A stretch of 4,411 nt of DNA from the IMG/VR virus record IMGVR_UViG_3300014784_000061, positions 1-4,411 of that record. The stretch is one strand, 5' to 3'. Shown piece after piece: positions 1 through 4,411 of this stretch. The notes beneath the pieces were generated by a model. The model saw only the letters and a list, made by a program, of their open reading frames with translations, did not search any database and was not told the origin of the DNA. The position numbers and the translations under genes were made by a program. This DNA is from a virus (taxonomy: Duplodnaviria > Heunggongvirae > Uroviricota > Caudoviricetes). Position 1 is the first letter of the stretch. Every line of letters starts with the position of its first letter.

Positions 1-242
1 ACGGTAGCCGGGTTAGCCTCTGCTATGAATTCAGCGTTTGCATAAGCCTGAGCATCTGTTTCAATCAGGCAGTTAATATGACATTCCGCAATCACGCCAC
101 CGGGTTCTCCTTTCCATTTTTGGCAAACAAAAACTCCTGTTAAATTGCCGTGCTGGTTAACAGATGTATGCCCTACGATGTAGCTTCCTTTAGTTGCTTT
201 CTCTGCCTTTTCACGCAGTGCCTGATAGTCAATCTTGCTCAC
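1..242 (-). CDS. Ead/Ea22-like family protein, N-terminal 80 aa only (gene continues beyond position 1)
   Basis: GTG at 242..240 is preceded by a strong SD (minus strand AAGGAGGCAGCCA-GTG) and overlaps the upstream stop. The frame is open to the window edge: MSKIDYQALREKAEKATKGSYIVGHTSVNQHGNLTGVFVCQKWKGEPGGVIAECHINCLIETDAQAYANAEFIAEANPAT.... The pattern ALRE..AEKAT.G...(about 45 aa)...ANAEFIA.ANP matches my recollection of the conserved N-terminal domain of Ead/Ea22-like prophage proteins. Confidence 0.45.
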   Translation of the reverse strand, partial: MSKIDYQALREKAEKATKGSYIVGHTSVNQHGNLTGVFVCQKWKGEPGGVIAECHINCLIETDAQAYANAEFIAEANPAT

Positions 243-543
243 TGGCTGCCTCCTTTGCCGGGATTTCTAACTTTTGAGTGGTTGTATCAAATTCAAACAA
301 CTTAACCACGTCATCAAACAGGACATAATCACCATCAGGATCTTCAGTCATATCTGCGCCACAATCCTGACCGCACGAGTCGCAACCATCCATATCAAGC
401 TCGTATCGCTTCAGGTTTGCGATATTTGATAAATTCAGCGCCAGTACAGCCAGGTCATAAACCTCTTCGGCAGTGACATCGCTGTTCAGTCCCATTTCAT
501 GGCGATATATGATTTTTTCTACTCGTTGTTTTGTGATCGTCAT
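229..543 (-). CDS. Hypothetical acidic protein with Cys cluster, 104 aa
   Basis: Track ORF begins with TTG at 567. ATG at 543..541 lies downstream of GGAG (minus strand CGGAGTGAAGAGAAAA-ATG). Protein MTITKQRVEKIIYRHEMGLN...DMDGCDSCGQDCGADMTEDPDGDYVLFDDVVKLFEFD... is highly acidic in its second half and has a C-x2-C-x3-C cluster. Stop TGA at 231..229. Confidence 0.5.
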   Translation of the reverse strand: MTITKQRVEKIIYRHEMGLNSDVTAEEVYDLAVLALNLSNIANLKRYELDMDGCDSCGQDCGADMTEDPDGDYVLFDDVVKLFEFDTTTQKLEIPAKEAASEQD

Positions 544-573
544 TTTTCTCTTCACTCCGATATACAAGGATTA

Positions 574-813
574 CTACACCCCCTCTGCTGATTGCGCGAG
601 CTGGATCCCCTGGTTCCATGCCGTCAATTCCGAAGGCTTCGAAAATGCATCCATTGCCTTCTGGCGTTGCTCCTGCTTACGGCGTTTATTCCATTTTTTC
701 ATGAACAACAGTGACAGCCATCGTCCGCTGCAGAACATGATGTAGAAATAACCAAGAAGTGCCAGGCCGGTGTTCAGGGCCATATCAATCGTTATCGCCG
801 GGTCAATATTCAC
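574..813 (-). CDS. Small membrane protein, 79 aa (one predicted TM helix plus basic segment)
   Basis: GTG start at 813..811 with AGGAGG 6 nt upstream (minus strand CAGGAGGTGGGCA-GTG), overlapping the DUF4406 stop by 11 nt; alternative ATG at 783. Hydrophobic stretch ALNTGLALLGYFYIMF followed by basic KKWNKRRKQEQRQK. Stop TAG at 576..574. Confidence 0.5.
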   Translation of the reverse strand: MNIDPAITIDMALNTGLALLGYFYIMFCSGRWLSLLFMKKWNKRRKQEQRQKAMDAFSKPSELTAWNQGIQLAQSAEGV

Positions 814-1105
814 TGCCCACCTCCTGAAAAATCACCGCATGGCCCAGTTTCTCCGCCAGTGCCAGCTCAGCCCTTGCACCTGCCGACTGCTGCCAGCCTT
901 TCAGCATGTAAACCGCATCCACGCAACGGAGCATTGCCATGCAAATATCCATGTAGTGTGGTTGAGTCAGCCCGTCCGGAAGTACTGCCGGGTTTAAAAC
1001 GGTATGCCCTTCCCGTTTCAGTACCTCTTCCGCATTGTGAAACGCCTCACGGTTGAAATTTTTATACCCGGTCATTGGACCGGCGATATAGACTCTCACC
1101 CTCAC
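803..1105 (-). CDS. DUF4406 / nucleoside 2-deoxyribosyltransferase-like protein, 100 aa
   Basis: GTG start at 1105..1103 overlapping the upstream stop, preceded by AGGAGG about 7 nt upstream. N-terminus M/V-RVRVYIAGPMTG carries the YIAGPMTG glycine-rich signature that I associate with the nucleoside 2-deoxyribosyltransferase-like / DUF4406 family, whose members are small proteins of about 100 aa in phages and prophages. Confidence 0.65.
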   Translation of the reverse strand: MRVRVYIAGPMTGYKNFNREAFHNAEEVLKREGHTVLNPAVLPDGLTQPHYMDICMAMLRCVDAVYMLKGWQQSAGARAELALAEKLGHAVIFQEVGSEY

Positions 1106-1494
1106 TCCATCACCTCCTGAAAGTTTCCCCGATAGAACGCCAGCACACGCTGCATAACTTCGCTCCTCCTGCTCTCACGACAAATTATGTTCTGCCGTCT
1201 GTTGTAACGACGTATTTCTCCGTCAGGTAACTTTCGAATCAGTGTCGGGTCAGCAGCCTTCTCCGGTGTCTTACGCCATACGCGATACGCCTGCTCTGAT
1301 GGAAATACCCCGCAACCAGAGAGCCAGACATCACCACTGGCCGCAAGCGCACCAGATAAACGACGAATAGCGGTCTTACTGACACCCGTTTTATCTGCCA
1401 GTTGTCGAAAAGTTTCTCGTCCGCTCAGGCGCACGAATTCCACAATGCGCGCCTTCACTTCTTCCCGCTCTTCTGGTGTAAATACTTTTGCCAT
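1102..1494 (-). CDS. Hypothetical HTH / winged-helix protein, 130 aa
   Basis: Track ORF begins with TTG at 1509. ATG at 1494..1492 follows GGAGG with 5-nt spacing (minus strand CCGGAGGCGCTT-ATG). Stop TGA at 1104..1102 overlaps the next start (GTGA). HTH-like segment ETFRQLADKTGVSKTAIRRL resembles the wH segments of the upstream 241-aa protein. Confidence 0.55.
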   Translation of the reverse strand: MAKVFTPEEREEVKARIVEFVRLSGRETFRQLADKTGVSKTAIRRLSGALAASGDVWLSGCGVFPSEQAYRVWRKTPEKAADPTLIRKLPDGEIRRYNRRQNIICRESRRSEVMQRVLAFYRGNFQEVME

Positions 1495-1509
1495 AAGCGC
1501 CTCCGGCAA

Positions 1510-2235
1510 TCACTTTTCCGATACAACACGGCGGGAAGAATCAGTAATCTGTCGAACAATATCCCGGTGCTTGTTCAGCTCCCGCAGCGCGGCGCAGACT
1601 CGCTCCCACTTCTGAACCTGACCTTTTGCCCGGCGCAGCTCGCGGTTAGCCACATGCAGCGATGGTAAAATCAGACCATCCGGATGTTTTCTGGTGAACG
1701 ACGGCTGTGACTGCACTGTGACCGCCACACTTTCCGTTTTTATTTCTTCCTGTGTTTCTGCTTCCCGGACAGGTAACGCAACACCTGCTGGCTGAGGAAA
1801 GGCCTTACCATCATTTTCCGTTACCGGCACGGCTTTCGGCTCTGCTGGTAAATTATCGCCCGGCATGCAGTAACGAAATTTACCGCCCTGATTCACGCGA
1901 ATCAGACGCCCTTTGCTGATTGCCATTGCCAGCGATGAATTCGCACGGCGGGAGGTAATTCCGAACATCAATGCCAGCTCATCCGCCGTTTGTGGGCCAT
2001 GTTGTTCAATCGCCTCTGTCAGCATTTGCGCCGTCACTTTTGGTGGTTGTATCACAGATTCACTTTCCCCAGCCTGAGTCAGCCACCACATCGCCCCCCT
2101 GTTATCCGCTTCACCACGGCGTTTCAGTTTCCACAGTTCGTTGACAGCCTCTTCACGACTGATTCCAAGGCGCGCAGCCACCACATGTGAAGAGGCTTTT
2201 TTCAGTGCTTTCAGTGCGTCAGATACGGTTTCCAT
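1510..2235 (-). CDS. Hypothetical prophage protein, 241 aa, two tandem winged-helix-like segments plus a C-terminal predicted coiled coil
   Basis: Track ORF 1510..2253 begins with TTG. ATG at 2235..2233 has an excellent SD (minus strand TCGGAGGAAATTTTA-ATG), giving [13 protein letters not shown].... Two similar HTH/wH-like segments: [26 protein letters not shown] and [32 protein letters not shown]-terminal part [35 protein letters not shown] looks coiled-coil. Reminiscent of uncharacterised prophage DUF families; I cannot assign one without a search. Confidence 0.6.
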
Positions 2236-2268
2236 TAAAATTTCCTCCGACAAAATCGTTTCTCAGAT

Positions 2269-2931
2269 TCAAATAAAACCAGCTGCCTTCCGGCGTTCGT
2301 ATTCCTGTTTCAGCCGTTCAATTGGCGTTGGCCCTTGCGGGTGTTTCGCCCCTTCCAGTTGTCGTCGCACTGGCGGAACACTCATCCCGTTACCAACATG
2401 CTTTGCCCATTTCGTCAGTTGCCGTTCCGCAAGTCGTTTTAACTCACCCTGCGTCATCTGGCGCTCAATCCCTCTGGTACGCATTTCGAGGCAGATGTGG
2501 TACAGCACAGGCTGTGGCCACGGGTATTTATCACTCCCGTCGTATCGCCAGGATTCATTGCGCCAGCGCCGGTACTCTTCCATCACGGCATCCACCGTAA
2601 GACCAAATGGATTTGCCCCACTCTCCGAAATCAGCGCAACAAACTCAGCCAGGTCCGGGGGCCACGTTTCACCCGCCCGGCAGCGGTCCATGCACTGACG
2701 GCAGACCAGCCGGATTTGCTGTTCAGTCATCGTGCCAATCTGGGCAATCCAGAGCTTCGAAGGTGCGGCCCCGTTCTTCTGTGTCCAGCGGTTCGAATAC
2801 ACCTCCCCCATAAGCTCCCACAGCTTCCAGGCCATTTCCGTTGCTGATAAATCCGTTGTCTCGTTCCCACTGTTCGCGTGCTGCCCGGATTTCCTGAACT
2901 GCCCGTGATGCCGTGCCACCTGATGCTGCAT
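2269..2931 (-). CDS. Lambda P-like replication protein (DnaB helicase loader), up to 220 aa; start uncertain
   Basis: ATG at 2931..2929 has a strong SD (minus strand AAGGGGGTAAGCC-ATG); stop TGA at 2271..2269. Internal in-frame alternatives are ATG 2835, 2811 and 2730. From about residue 58 the protein (SKLWIAQIGTMTEQQIRLV...DLAEFVALISE...YPWPQPVLYHI...) resembles lambda P as I recall it (...IRRQWVLAFRENGITTMEQV...PSPGQFVAWCREE...YPWKSNAHYWLV...). No Walker A motif, so it is not DnaC-like. Confidence 0.65.
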   Translation of the reverse strand: MQHQVARHHGQFRKSGQHANSGNETTDLSATEMAWKLWELMGEVYSNRWTQKNGAAPSKLWIAQIGTMTEQQIRLVCRQCMDRCRAGETWPPDLAEFVALISESGANPFGLTVDAVMEEYRRWRNESWRYDGSDKYPWPQPVLYHICLEMRTRGIERQMTQGELKRLAERQLTKWAKHVGNGMSVPPVRRQLEGAKHPQGPTPIERLKQEYERRKAAGFI

Positions 2932-3760
2932 GGCTTACCCCCTTGCTGACTGGTTTTACCTGTGCCCTGACGTGCTGCACGTGGCGGGCAAATTTCTGCT
3001 CCCACTGAACCTGTGTGAAAACCTTCCCCTCCGCCATCCAGTAATCCCGGAATGCGGCAAGCTCTGCAGGTGTAAATTCCGGCTCAGGCAGAGCCATACC
3101 CCACACTGCTGCCCGTTGTCGAAAATCCGGCGACGGCTGCCAGACAGTGGTCATCGAAAATTTCCCGATCGGTTCGCTCAGGCCGTCCAGGTATTCAGGT
3201 TCGGCTGTCTGCAACGGCGCACCATGCGACTCACCGGTTGGAGCACTCTCGCGCATGCGCGCGTTATGTGTGGGGTTTAATTCTGTATCTGTATCTTTAT
3301 CTGTCGTGACTTGTCGTGACAGATGCGTGACACGTCGTGACTCATCGTGACAATCAGCATCATATTTCCGCAGCTTTTCGCGCTCCCGCTGCGCTCTCTT
3401 GCGCTCTGCCGGGGATTTTGCCGTTTGCGAAACGTTACCATTGTCCTCTTTCAGCACCTGACGTTTTTCCCATCCGGAAATAAGGTCACCATCCAGAACC
3501 CGCCCCTGCATTGCATGCAAAATTGAATCAATTACGTCTTCCGTCACATCAAGCGCACTTGCTAAATCTTCCGTCGTGACATCAATGTGACCACGTAGTG
3601 ACACGCCGTGACATGTCGTGACATTTCGTGACGCGCTCACCAGAAGGTGGATATACACTGCCATCACTGTTGCGATTGGCTGTCCTGATACCCTGGCAAT
3701 CGTTCGCCACTTGGGGTCATTTGGCATGTCATGCCACAATCTGAGCCAGGCATTAGCCAT
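2723..3760 (-). CDS. Phage replication initiator (lambda O position), 345 aa, with C-terminal DnaT-like domain; contains the putative ori iterons
   Basis: ORF 2723..3766 in the track begins with GTG; ATG at 3760..3758 is preceded by GAGG (minus strand AGAAGAGGTGAGT-ATG), so I place the start at 3760, with 3766 as an alternative. C-terminal region IGKFSMTTVWQPSPDFRQRAAVWGMALPEPEFTPAELAAFRDYWMAEGKVFTQVQWEQKFARHVQHVRAQ aligns by eye with the C-terminal domain of E. coli DnaT (recalled as ...[68 protein letters not shown]). Two iteron clusters lie inside the coding sequence, as in lambdoid O genes. Confidence 0.75.
   Translation of the reverse strand: MANAWLRLWHDMPNDPKWRTIARVSGQPIATVMAVYIHLLVSASRNVTTCHGVSLRGHIDVTTEDLASALDVTEDVIDSILHAMQGRVLDGDLISGWEKRQVLKEDNGNVSQTAKSPAERKRAQREREKLRKYDADCHDESRRVTHLSRQVTTDKDTDTELNPTHNARMRESAPTGESHGAPLQTAEPEYLDGLSEPIGKFSMTTVWQPSPDFRQRAAVWGMALPEPEFTPAELAAFRDYWMAEGKVFTQVQWEQKFARHVQHVRAQVKPVSKGVSHAASGGTASRAVQEIRAAREQWERDNGFISNGNGLEAVGAYGGGVFEPLDTEERGRTFEALDCPDWHDD
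3281..3300. repeat. AT-rich short tandem tract (tctgta/tctgta/tcttta, continuing into tctgtc) flanking iteron cluster A; candidate DNA-unwinding element
   Basis: Sequence ttctgtatctgtatctttat directly abuts the first iteron. It is locally AT-rich relative to the surrounding GC-rich coding DNA. Iteron arrays next to an AT-rich tract are typical of lambdoid origins. Confidence 0.4.
3301..3351. repeat. Iteron cluster A: 5 direct repeats with 10-11 bp period, core (T)CGTGAC
   Basis: Plus strand: ctgtcgtgac (3301-3310), ttgtcgtgac (3311-3320), agatgcgtgac (3321-3331), acgtcgtgac (3332-3341), tcatcgtgac (3342-3351). Immediately adjacent to an AT-richer 6-bp periodic tract at 3281-3300. Confidence 0.8.
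3571..3632. repeat. Iteron cluster B: 6 direct repeats with 10-11 bp period, core (C)GTGAC
   Basis: Plus strand: ccgtcgtgac (3571-3580), atcaatgtgac (3581-3591), cacgtagtgac (3592-3602), acgccgtgac (3603-3612), atgtcgtgac (3613-3622), atttcgtgac (3623-3632). One-helical-turn phasing. Lies in the N-terminal coding part of the initiator gene (encodes ...RNVTTCHGVSLRGHIDVTTEDL...). Confidence 0.8.
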
Positions 3761-3828
3761 ACTCACCTCTTCTGATACCGAACTTTACCCACGAACTTCC
3801 GGAAGAAATCCGGTATAAATATTGTTGG

Positions 3829-4254
3829 TCAATGCACAACAACAGCATTACCAGGCTGACCACCACTGTTAGTCAGGGTGCCCCAGGCGATCGCCGCTGC
3901 GACAAAATCATCCACATCTTTCACCAGCCGATCCCTCCGTTCGACGATCTCACGGTAATATTCAGAACTGTGGCTGCGCATACGGGCCACCAGCAAAGGC
4001 GGCATCGCCTTTTCGATCGCCGGTAACAGAGCCTGCATTTTTTCAACAGCATCAGGGGTGTCTTTATCCAGCCAACGGAAAATTTTCTGTGTATTACGGG
4101 CCAGGGCTTCCGGATGGCTGTCGTCGTACAGTTCAGGGAACGTCATCCCCAGTTCGAAATAAGTCCGGGCTATTTCAGCTGCAGGAACTTTCTCACCGTC
4201 CGGATAGGCCCAGGCATTGATCGCCATGCGGATGTGCTCATGCTTGATTTTCAT
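3829..4254 (-). CDS. ydaT: YdaT-family protein (141 aa) at the lambda cII position
   Basis: ATG at 4254..4252 preceded by AGGAG with 8-nt spacing (minus strand CTAGGAGCTTGATTC-ATG); stop at 3831..3829. Protein MKIKHEHIRMAINAWAYPDG... matches what I recall of E. coli Rac-prophage YdaT (about 140 aa, same N-terminus). It sits between the Cro-like gene and the replication initiator. Confidence 0.6.
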   Translation of the reverse strand: MKIKHEHIRMAINAWAYPDGEKVPAAEIARTYFELGMTFPELYDDSHPEALARNTQKIFRWLDKDTPDAVEKMQALLPAIEKAMPPLLVARMRSHSSEYYREIVERRDRLVKDVDDFVAAAIAWGTLTNSGGQPGNAVVVH

Positions 4255-4411
4255 GAATCAAGCTCCTAGAAAGTGGTTGTGTTAACGTTTTGGTATCTTC
4301 CAGCTCAGGCCAAATATTCATCCAATCAAAAGGCCTTAGTTGCTGACGTGTAACTTCACCATTACTGGCTCGCTCAATAAGGACACATAACGATGCCCCT
4401 AACACTTGGCC
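4238..4411 (-). CDS. YdaS-like Cro-type HTH regulator, C-terminal part only (gene starts beyond position 4411)
   Basis: Minus-strand frame is open from the window edge to TGA at 4240..4238. It translates ...GQVLGASLCVLIERASNGEVTRQQLRPFDWMNIWPELEDTKTLTQPLSRSLIHENQA. The segment C-x-LIE-x(3)-G-x-VT-x(3)-LRP-x-DW matches my recollection of the conserved C-terminal block of YdaS/Cro-like prophage regulators. The 3' end overlaps the start of the next gene by 17 nt. Confidence 0.5.
   Translation of the reverse strand, partial: GQVLGASLCVLIERASNGEVTRQQLRPFDWMNIWPELEDTKTLTQPLSRSLIHENQA

Follow-up and report, generated by a model that had tools for sequence, protein, structure and literature searches.

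The replication module of a lambdoid (Rac-like) prophage, contained in a stretch of 4,411 nucleotides (nt) of viral DNA (Caudoviricetes; IMG/VR record IMGVR_UViG_3300014784_000061, positions 1 to 4,411; hereafter, the window), raises the question whether the genes for a replication initiator and for a homologue of the phage lambda helicase loader P (hereafter, the loader or P) share 209 nt in two reading frames and, if they do, where the loader begins. We consider it likely, with good confidence, that this is a real, evolutionarily maintained dual-coding overlap of two partner replication genes and that the loader is translated from the ATG at position 2931. The junction comprises the following elements:

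2723..3760, minus strand: coding sequence of the replication initiator (open reading frame [ORF] 3766..2723), identified by the ORF call, by Pfam, NCBIfam and PHROG matches, and by a RefSeq relative
2960..3160, minus strand: DnaT-like single-stranded DNA (ssDNA)-binding domain, amino acids (aa) 203-269 of the 347-codon initiator ORF, upstream of the overlap
2938..2944, minus strand: Shine-Dalgarno (SD) sequence AAGGGGG of the long loader start, inside the initiator codons for S-K-G
2269..2931, minus strand: coding sequence of the lambda-P-like helicase loader in its long form of 220 aa, the proposed true gene
2723..2931, minus strand: dual-coding overlap of 209 nt, initiator codons ~279-347 plus the stop and P codons 1-70
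2854..2931, minus strand: overlap segment A, P codons 1-26, where the initiator frame dominates and the P leader is variable and predicted to be disordered
2861..2914, minus strand: motif TASRAVQEIRAAREQWER of the initiator-frame tail, aa 285-302, recognized in the tail alignment and with very low diversity at initiator codon positions 1 and 2
2723..2853, minus strand: overlap segment B, P codons 27-70, where the P frame dominates and the initiator tail is variable, acidic and kept open
2809..2811, minus strand: ATG of Met41, an alternative or possible secondary loader start
2728..2730, minus strand: ATG of Met68, the start annotated in Escherichia coli RefSeq and GenBank entries (153 aa, 8-nt overlap)

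Every gene in the window lies on the minus strand. The initiator ORF begins with GTG 3766; RefSeq relatives begin at the ATG equivalent to 3760, which is probably the start codon, and the frame ends with the TGA at 2725-2723. The loader ORF extends from ATG 2931 to a stop at 2269. This ATG is preceded by cagcAAGGGGGtaagccATG, which includes the SD sequence (2944-2938) at a spacing of 6 nt, and a TAA stop in the loader frame is located one codon 5' of it. An earlier examination of this DNA from its letters only (hereafter, the sequence-only reading) had reported the same TGA, the same ATG with its AAGGGGG and 6-nt spacer, and the overlap of 209 nt; all these coordinates are correct, as is the calculation by which a start at ATG 2835 or 2811 would shorten the overlap to 113 or 89 nt. 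A start at ATG 2730 would leave 8 nt. The loader frame is +1 relative to the initiator frame, with loader codon positions 1, 2 and 3 (P1, P2 and P3) coinciding with initiator codon positions 2, 3 and 1 (O2, O3 and O1), respectively. A change that is silent in one frame nearly always alters the other, which makes comparative data very informative at the overlap.

For any single sequence, the open stretch is unremarkable because, at the off-frame stop density of these initiator genes (0.043 per codon), a run of 48 open off-frame codons has a p-value of ~0.12. Judging from the relatives compared here, the significance of the overlap comes from the conservation of both frames, of the SD-ATG pair, and of frame-specific substitution patterns. 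Across the overlap, the third minus-strand frame is open as well (2727-3005; 118 open codons, with a 92-aa ORF starting from GTG); it recurs only in the near-identical locus L004 and, partly, in L021, and probably reflects chance in G+C-rich DNA.

Conservation and frame-specific selection at the junction

Using two loader-core peptides as queries, and hence independently of the overlap, we retrieved 37 genome loci that, together with six annotated relatives and the window, yielded 40 analysable loci. In 38 of the 40, both frames are intact and the initiator stop lies 29-101 nt past the codon for W49 of the loader, in most loci at +65 or +68; three loci end the initiator 11-12 codons earlier. 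The loader is always +1 relative to the initiator in the overlapping loci, and the overlap counted from the SD-associated ATG spans 149-227 nt (median 212; 38 loci). It is found in at least 17 enterobacterial genera, with loader identity of 41-95% (Escherichia, Salmonella, Citrobacter, Enterobacter, Klebsiella, Pluralibacter, Phytobacter, Kluyvera, Scandinavium, Pectobacterium, Buttiauxella, Dryocola, Rahnella, Erwinia, Serratia, Samsonia, Limnobaculum, Rouxiella and Yersinia). A separate set of close viral sequences, compiled from 80 IMG/VR contigs of 94-100% identity and reduced to 37 distinct sequences, has both frames intact throughout (37 of 37). The sequence-only reading had proposed to look in homologues for conservation of both frames and for an initiator-frame stop near position 2930; the conservation is there, and no homologue has such a stop.

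Loader homologues without an overlapping initiator are encoded in L035 (Erwinia sp. CGal63) and L042 (Erwinia sp. MMLR14_017), which keep 40 and 24 codons before W49, respectively, with an ATG; their upstream genes, encoding a PP-loop ATPase and a phosphotransferase system EIIC/EIIB permease, are of non-phage type. Both are probably prophage remnants or orphan loaders, and for these reasons we dropped them as independent proof of an unoverlapped loader N-terminus. The loader frame of L041 (Leclercia adecarboxylata NCTC13032) is interrupted upstream of residue ~70, and the loader gene of L044 (Ca. Symbiopectobacterium) has decayed to a fragment of 80 codons; these two appear to be pseudogenes.

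The alternative that the sequence-only reading had placed beside a real overprinted region was a recent recombination junction or a frameshift. We took such a frameshift to be either an error (including an indel) or a programmed event that yields an initiator-loader fusion. Lambdoid replication modules are indeed mosaic, with similarity to other phages beginning inside the initiator gene; one PHROG family, phrog_15931 (482 positions), is matched both by the initiator (positions 1-347) and by the loader (positions 279-482); and one database protein, P0106, fuses DUF1376 to P. The breadth of genera, however, rules out a recent junction, an indel and an assembly error, given that the same overlap, frame relation and start signal are shared by at least 17 of them, from Escherichia to Yersinia, Serratia, Erwinia and Limnobaculum. 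The matches to phrog_15931 suggest a family that mixes initiators with a fused initiator-loader call. P0106 (333 aa) is a singleton and no product of frameshifting: its DnaT domain has been joined to loader residue ~103 by an in-frame deletion. No recurrent initiator-loader fusion was detected among 172 homologues, although no systematic search for a slippery site was made. A frameshift is also unnecessary because an independent SD-ATG is present, and we regard this whole class of explanations as very improbable.

Substitution patterns divide the junction into two parts. Mean pairwise diversity by codon class in 20 loci is given below in the order P1/O2, P2/O3, P3/O1 (these counts ignore phylogeny):

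Initiator only: 0.285, 0.523, 0.313 (wobble at O3)
P codons 1-34: 0.250, 0.421, 0.342 (still initiator-type)
P codons 35-67: 0.181, 0.127, 0.404 (P-type)
P only: 0.176, 0.122, 0.511 (P-type)

In a 7-codon sliding window, the periodicity switches from initiator-like to P-like at loader codon ~27 (window position ~2853), which coincides with the start of the first predicted helix of the loader. Among the 37 close viral sequences, the segregating sites, in the same order of classes, are 1/7/3 for P codons 1-26, 1/3/14 for P codons 27-67, and 2/2/16 where P alone is encoded. Each frame thus displays its own signature in one segment only; elsewhere, the evidence for it consists of stop avoidance and conservation of the start signal.

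Stop avoidance was assessed by resampling the synonymous codons of the dominant frame with the codon usage of each locus, again ignoring phylogeny. Given the loader protein, the initiator frame is expected to remain open to the observed stop with a mean probability of 0.24 per locus, yet it is open in all 40 loci; with the initiator protein held fixed instead, the loader frame is expected to remain open through segment A with a mean probability of 0.72 per locus and is likewise open in all 40. The first of these results bears on the possibility that both proteins are made while their overlap as such serves no function, the last ~35 initiator residues being a neutral by-product that runs to the first stop allowed by the loader sequence. 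Consistent with such a by-product, the initiator residues in segment B are variable or dictated by invariant loader residues, and the distance of the stop from W49 ranges from +29 to +101 nt, with the three earlier ends mentioned above. The openness of all 40 loci against ~24% of resampling trials per locus, together with synonymous (P3) diversity that is lower in the overlap (0.404) than in the rest of P (0.511), led us to conclude that the initiator tail is kept by selection. The preference for stops at +65 or +68 and the strong conservation of the segment A tail in the initiator frame point in the same direction, and we rate the neutral by-product as unlikely.

Start codon and fold of the loader

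In nearly every locus, an ATG 39-50 codons upstream of W49 is preceded, at a distance of 5-9 nt, by an SD sequence (GGAGG, GGGGG or GAGG), and this pair is kept although the surrounding initiator sequence is highly diverged. The upstream ATG (M1) is present at the homologous position in all 37 loci, with a median anti-SD duplex energy of -10.2 kcal/mol, which falls in the top ~1% of positions within the respective initiator genes. The window has -11.8 kcal/mol at this site, and no position in its own initiator gene is stronger. In the nucleotide alignment of the 20 loci, the M1 codon forms an island of conservation, with diversity of 0.10/0.10/0.00 compared to 0.5-0.7 in the flanks. The ATG at 2835 (Met33) is replaced by Thr in the closest relatives. 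From these comparisons, ATG 2931 is most likely the main start of the loader, and the preference of the sequence-only reading for a genuinely overprinted region with this start gains support from conservation, from the SD-ATG pair and from codon periodicity.

The loader gene models in the databases, at 153, 180 and 220 aa, are mutually inconsistent, and the comparative evidence favours the long form. A 153-aa 'replication protein P' that starts at the counterpart of ATG 2730 and overlaps the initiator by 8 nt is predicted by the Prokaryotic Genome Annotation Pipeline (PGAP) in E. coli and given in the GenBank records of Rac-SA53 and vB_Apl-pPE4; RefSeq entries of the WP_000139447.1 type have this length. 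PPompW phage records give 141 aa, whereas PGAP predicts 180-181 aa, from the equivalent of Met41, in Salmonella, Citrobacter, Klebsiella, Pectobacterium and Brenneria. Other pipelines produce 212-223 aa, so that the long form is already public, as 220-223-aa 'replication protein' entries. The inconsistency is visible among the annotated loci L001-L006 and the database proteins P0015-P0031. Of 5,426 complete E. coli genomes, 2,995 carry related DNA. One of the annotated relatives (PP818812.1, L003) is recorded as Actinobacillus phage vB_Apl-pPE4, in which the module is 87% identical at the nucleotide level to an E. coli prophage sequence, an unexpectedly close match for a phage of Pasteurellaceae.

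Under the 153-aa model, the two genes would meet in an 8-nt, coupling-type overlap, and the upstream part of the loader ORF would be a chance open frame in G+C-rich DNA. Apart from the RefSeq and GenBank annotations, this model can point to ATGACTGA, a classic coupling junction, to the p-value of ~0.12 for a single open stretch of 48 codons, and to the openness of all three minus-strand frames across the overlap in the window. The comparative data already contradict it: position 68 lacks an SD, its median anti-SD duplex energy of -2.1 kcal/mol is close to the median of random positions, and in 10 of the 37 loci it is not a start codon (CTG, TTG, TTC, CTC, TGC or TGT). Seven invariant loader residues and P-type periodicity lie upstream of it, and a start there would cost the protein ~67 residues, including these invariant ones and about half of the equivalent of lambda P domain II. 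The sequence-only reading had named a start at ATG 2730 as the outcome that would reduce the overlap to 8 nt; we judge this annotated start to be wrong and give the model hardly any credence.

Sequence comparisons bear further on the N-terminus. The loader matches PF06992 (Phage_lambda_P) over aa 58-187 (58.3 bits; cutoff, 26), in agreement with the resemblance to lambda P that the sequence-only reading had noticed from about residue 58; the weaker similarity that it placed from about residue 33 is close to the mark, with periodicity and the AlphaFold model setting the beginning of the constrained, structured part slightly earlier, at residue ~27-28. The phrog_109 family ('P-like helicase loader', 236 positions) matches aa 14-220 with profile positions 18-236 (E = 2.4e-62), and residues 1-67 alone still match it (E = 4.6e-4); none of the NCBIfam models matches the loader. 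In alignments of 31 and 48 homologues (43-90% identity), M1, W38, W49, K52, N53, G54, P57 and W61 are invariant, W35 is conserved in at least 90%, and M41 is nearly invariant. All these residues are upstream of Met68, a position at which many relatives have Leu or some other residue. When 1.84 billion representatives were searched exhaustively for remote homologues, about 58 of the 150 best matches, many of them only 25-40% identical, covered the loader in one stretch from residue 36 or earlier to beyond residue 98. For many remote representatives (25-40% identity, 120-260 aa), the match is confined to residues ~20-110 (window positions ~2600-2870); a module resembling domain II may occur on its own, or joined to other C-terminal parts, in other proteins.

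BLASTP aligned only residues 85-192 of the 220-aa loader with lambda P (~25% identity), so that placement of the N-terminus required profile and fold comparisons. The family profile matches the lambda P chain in the PDB (E = 9e-7), its positions 56-188 aligning with lambda P residues 69-202 and W61 corresponding to W69 of lambda P. In the AlphaFold model of the 220-aa loader, residues 1-28 are predicted to be disordered (predicted local distance difference test score [pLDDT] <50) and are followed by helices at 28-53, 59-66, 70-85 and 94-104, then at 113-180, and by a C-terminal helix at 203-216. A Foldseek search with this model returned the lambda P chains of 9oa1 as the best PDB matches (197-200 columns, E = 1e-5), and domain III superposes on that of lambda P at 1.1 A. 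Lambda P begins with a disordered domain I (residues 1-29), which is followed by a compact domain II (~30-119), by domain III (120-192) and by a lasso at the C-terminus (PMC12661323). In the predicted structure, this four-part architecture is reproduced only by the long form that starts at ATG 2931. By homology and gene context, the loader would bind the host DnaB helicase and deliver it to the initiator-bound origin.

A start at ATG 2811 (Met41), with an overlap of 89 nt and the upstream part of the loader ORF untranslated or present only in a minor isoform, also has to be weighed. Position 41 is ATG in 35 of the 37 loci (CTG in the other two) and has a moderately SD-like context (median, -6.1 kcal/mol; ~10th percentile); it is the start chosen by PGAP for the 180-181-aa proteins, and phrog_33198 begins there. 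P codons 1-26 show initiator-type periodicity only, and the loader frame would often be open upstream by chance. P-type periodicity, however, sets in at codon ~27, not 41; W35 and the invariant W38 precede Met41; the predicted first helix spans residues 28-53; and remote homologues align from residue ~14-36. Besides the two loci with CTG, the putative SD of Met41, TGGGAG, is lost where Glu40 is replaced by Gln, Thr or Arg, whereas the upstream SD-ATG is far stronger and is found at a homologous place in all lineages. Met41 may serve as a secondary start within the gene; that it is the only substantial one appears to us rather unlikely.

Several observations count against the long, maintained overlap with its start at ATG 2931. 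The start is deduced from sequence comparison. Loader residues 1-26 are poorly conserved and predicted to be disordered, with the substitutions expected of initiator-only coding; because segment A looks like initiator-only sequence, the case for M1 over a start near codon 27 rests on the conservation of the SD-ATG pair and the absence of any other conserved start. The openness of the loader frame in segment A, at 0.72 per locus, is weak evidence locus by locus and persuasive only over many lineages, and for this reason we relied on the SD-ATG pair in that segment. The Met41 codon is widely conserved, moderately SD-like, and used by PGAP in Salmonella, Klebsiella and Citrobacter. In segment B, the initiator tail sequence EPLD.EER is the -1 reading of the invariant loader residues NRW..KNG; being largely dictated by P, the conservation of this part of the tail by itself says nothing of function. 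The mean pLDDT of the loader model (68.6) indicates moderate confidence, and the global root mean square deviation of the Foldseek superposition is high because the orientation of the domains differs. The loci share ancestry, so that per-locus probabilities cannot simply be multiplied, and we give no combined p-value. The docking role considered below for the initiator tail is likewise conjectural.

With the loader starting at ATG 2931, the junction could work as follows. The loader would be translated from its own SD inside the initiator coding sequence, giving a 220-aa protein equivalent to full-length lambda P, while the initiator, read in the -1 frame relative to P, continues for ~70 codons to the TGA at 2725-2723. 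Between 2931 and 2854, the initiator frame is the constrained one, encoding the TASRAVQEIRAAREQWER motif, and P is represented by a predicted disordered leader free to vary, the counterpart of the N-terminal 'lasso' of lambda P. Between 2853 and 2723, constraint passes to the P frame, which encodes the first helices of domain II, leaving the initiator with a variable acidic tail that is largely dictated by P and kept free of stops. The disordered loader leader and the acidic end of the tail would be 'cheap' segments that tolerate the constraint of the partner. Ribosomes on the initiator would have to cross the loader start site, and synthesis of P might accordingly be coupled to, limited or tuned by translation of the initiator.

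The initiator tail and its possible role

The initiator consists of an N-terminal domain of the replisome-organizer type, a DnaT-like C-terminal domain and a tail of ~70 aa. The PF17948 DnaT domain is matched at aa 203-269 (62.6 bits; cutoff, 25), and the initiator belongs with phrog_1408 and phrog_3729 (replication initiation protein) by its PHROG matches; the RefSeq relative is WP_033805394.1 (345 aa). The NF002770 model of DnaT (179 positions) matches aa 196-271 only partially, at 94 bits compared to the equivalog cutoff of 201, and by these scores the initiator is not a bona fide DnaT. The match ends at model position 156, which corresponds to initiator residue 271, placing the ~70-residue tail outside detectable DnaT homology.

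Alignment of the last 150 initiator residues revealed a common tail of ~70 residues in which a Gly-Gly pair (forming the SD) is followed by [HN]-A (forming the ATG), by [ST]ASRAVQQ-IRAAREQWER, by a Gly-rich stretch, and by EPLD.EER with an acidic end. Within the TASRAVQEIRAAREQWER motif (residues 285-302, positions 2914-2861), diversity at O1 and O2 is 0.03-0.15. The tail is found downstream of unrelated sequences, in at least five initiator architectures as defined by Pfam:

Window: replisome-organizer type plus DnaT
L001: DUF1376 plus DnaT
L002: HTH_36 plus DnaT
L023: lambda-O N-terminal domain (Phage_rep_O), without DnaT
L024: HTH_36/DnaD_N
L025 and L027: DUF1376, without DnaT

A protein search with the 73-aa tail alone retrieved only partial E. 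coli fragments and was uninformative on the distribution of the tail. No similarity of the tail to lambda O was detected; in a BLASTP comparison with lambda O, the tail-bearing L023 initiator aligned by its N-terminal domain only.

Lambda O's C-terminal domain works with P. By analogy with it, the tail helix (residues 285-302) is a candidate loader-docking or recruiting element. Structural work on lambda P used the C-terminal domain of the initiator (PMC12661323). Co-folding of the tail and the loader with paired alignments was considered and rejected: the same nucleotides encode both, so that the columns co-vary trivially and could mimic contacts.

Should the tail dock the loader, a docking peptide encoded inside the loader gene might keep peptide and cognate loader together when replication modules recombine, an idea that we advance tentatively. 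The overlap could then possibly serve as a 'portable adaptor', in that an initiator recombined in frame just upstream of the loader ribosome-binding site would gain the ~70-codon cognate tail. It is equally speculative that the interacting surfaces would thereby become genetically inseparable while origin-binding domains shuffle among lambdoid prophages. Bearing on the adaptor are the presence of the same tail on at least five architectures, the strong initiator-frame selection on its first half, and the openness of its second half. If the tail does recruit the loader, the retention of cognate contacts between initiator and loader in mosaic replication modules would find its explanation in the overlap.

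Known counterparts and the surrounding locus

The closest counterpart is the O/P pair of lambda (PF06992; 9oa1, 9oa2 and 8v9s). The loader is a homologue of lambda P in sequence and fold and has the same layout, in which a disordered N-terminal leader precedes two helical domains and a C-terminal helix; as in lambda, it is encoded directly downstream of an initiator gene that carries iteron-like repeat clusters. The initiator, unlike lambda O, combines a replisome-organizer-type N-terminus with a DnaT-like domain. The observation of the sequence-only reading that lambdoid O and P genes usually overlap by only a few nt is accurate: the overlap is 4 nt in lambda, compared to 209 nt here. With E. 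coli DnaT (PF17948/NF002770), the initiator shares the C-terminal ssDNA-binding domain (aa 196-271), but the match is partial and the initiator additionally has an origin-binding N-terminal domain.

Phages provide well-known overprinted or dual-coding gene pairs, namely, lambda Rz/Rz1, phiX174 A/B/K and D/E, and MS2 L. Overlapping genes of this kind have been reviewed (PMC8227390). As in these pairs, two proteins are encoded by one stretch of DNA in different frames of the same strand, and each segment has one constrained frame and one that is compositionally odd and disordered, with synonymous variation depressed. Unlike embedded overprinted genes, the present pair is a tail-to-head overlap of partner proteins; dominance is reciprocal, with the initiator frame prevailing in the first ~78 nt and the loader frame in the remaining ~130 nt; and neither product is an orphan, both belonging to known families.

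A lambda-P-family loader, an initiator with a DnaT domain, and same-strand overlapping phage genes are all already known. What appears not to have been described before is a conserved dual-coding junction of ~200 nt with reciprocal dominance, along with the truncation of the loader in the common RefSeq model; a full-text literature search found no record or paper pointing out the conserved overlap, although such an absence is no proof that it has not been described. For annotation, the finding means that the E. coli RefSeq loader model starts at a non-conserved Met without a ribosome-binding site. More generally, the junction is a clean and deeply conserved case of same-strand dual coding over ~200 nt in a bacterial virus, the two frames being reciprocally dominant, and it links two proteins that are expected to act together at the origin.

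Two neighbouring genes flank the replication pair:

4254-3829, minus strand: YdaT-family gene
2253/2235-1510, minus strand: DUF1627 gene

No RNA family of Rfam was found in the window. Inside the initiator gene, GTCACGAC-like repeats form two clusters on the minus strand, at 3303-3351 and 3573-3632, with about 5 and about 5-6 copies, respectively, spaced by ~10-11 bp. Across the window, GTCACGAC-like matches with at most one mismatch number 25, compared to 12.5 expected, and none of 200 shuffled sequences reaches 25. Both clusters resemble origin iterons lying inside the initiator gene, the arrangement found in the lambda ori.

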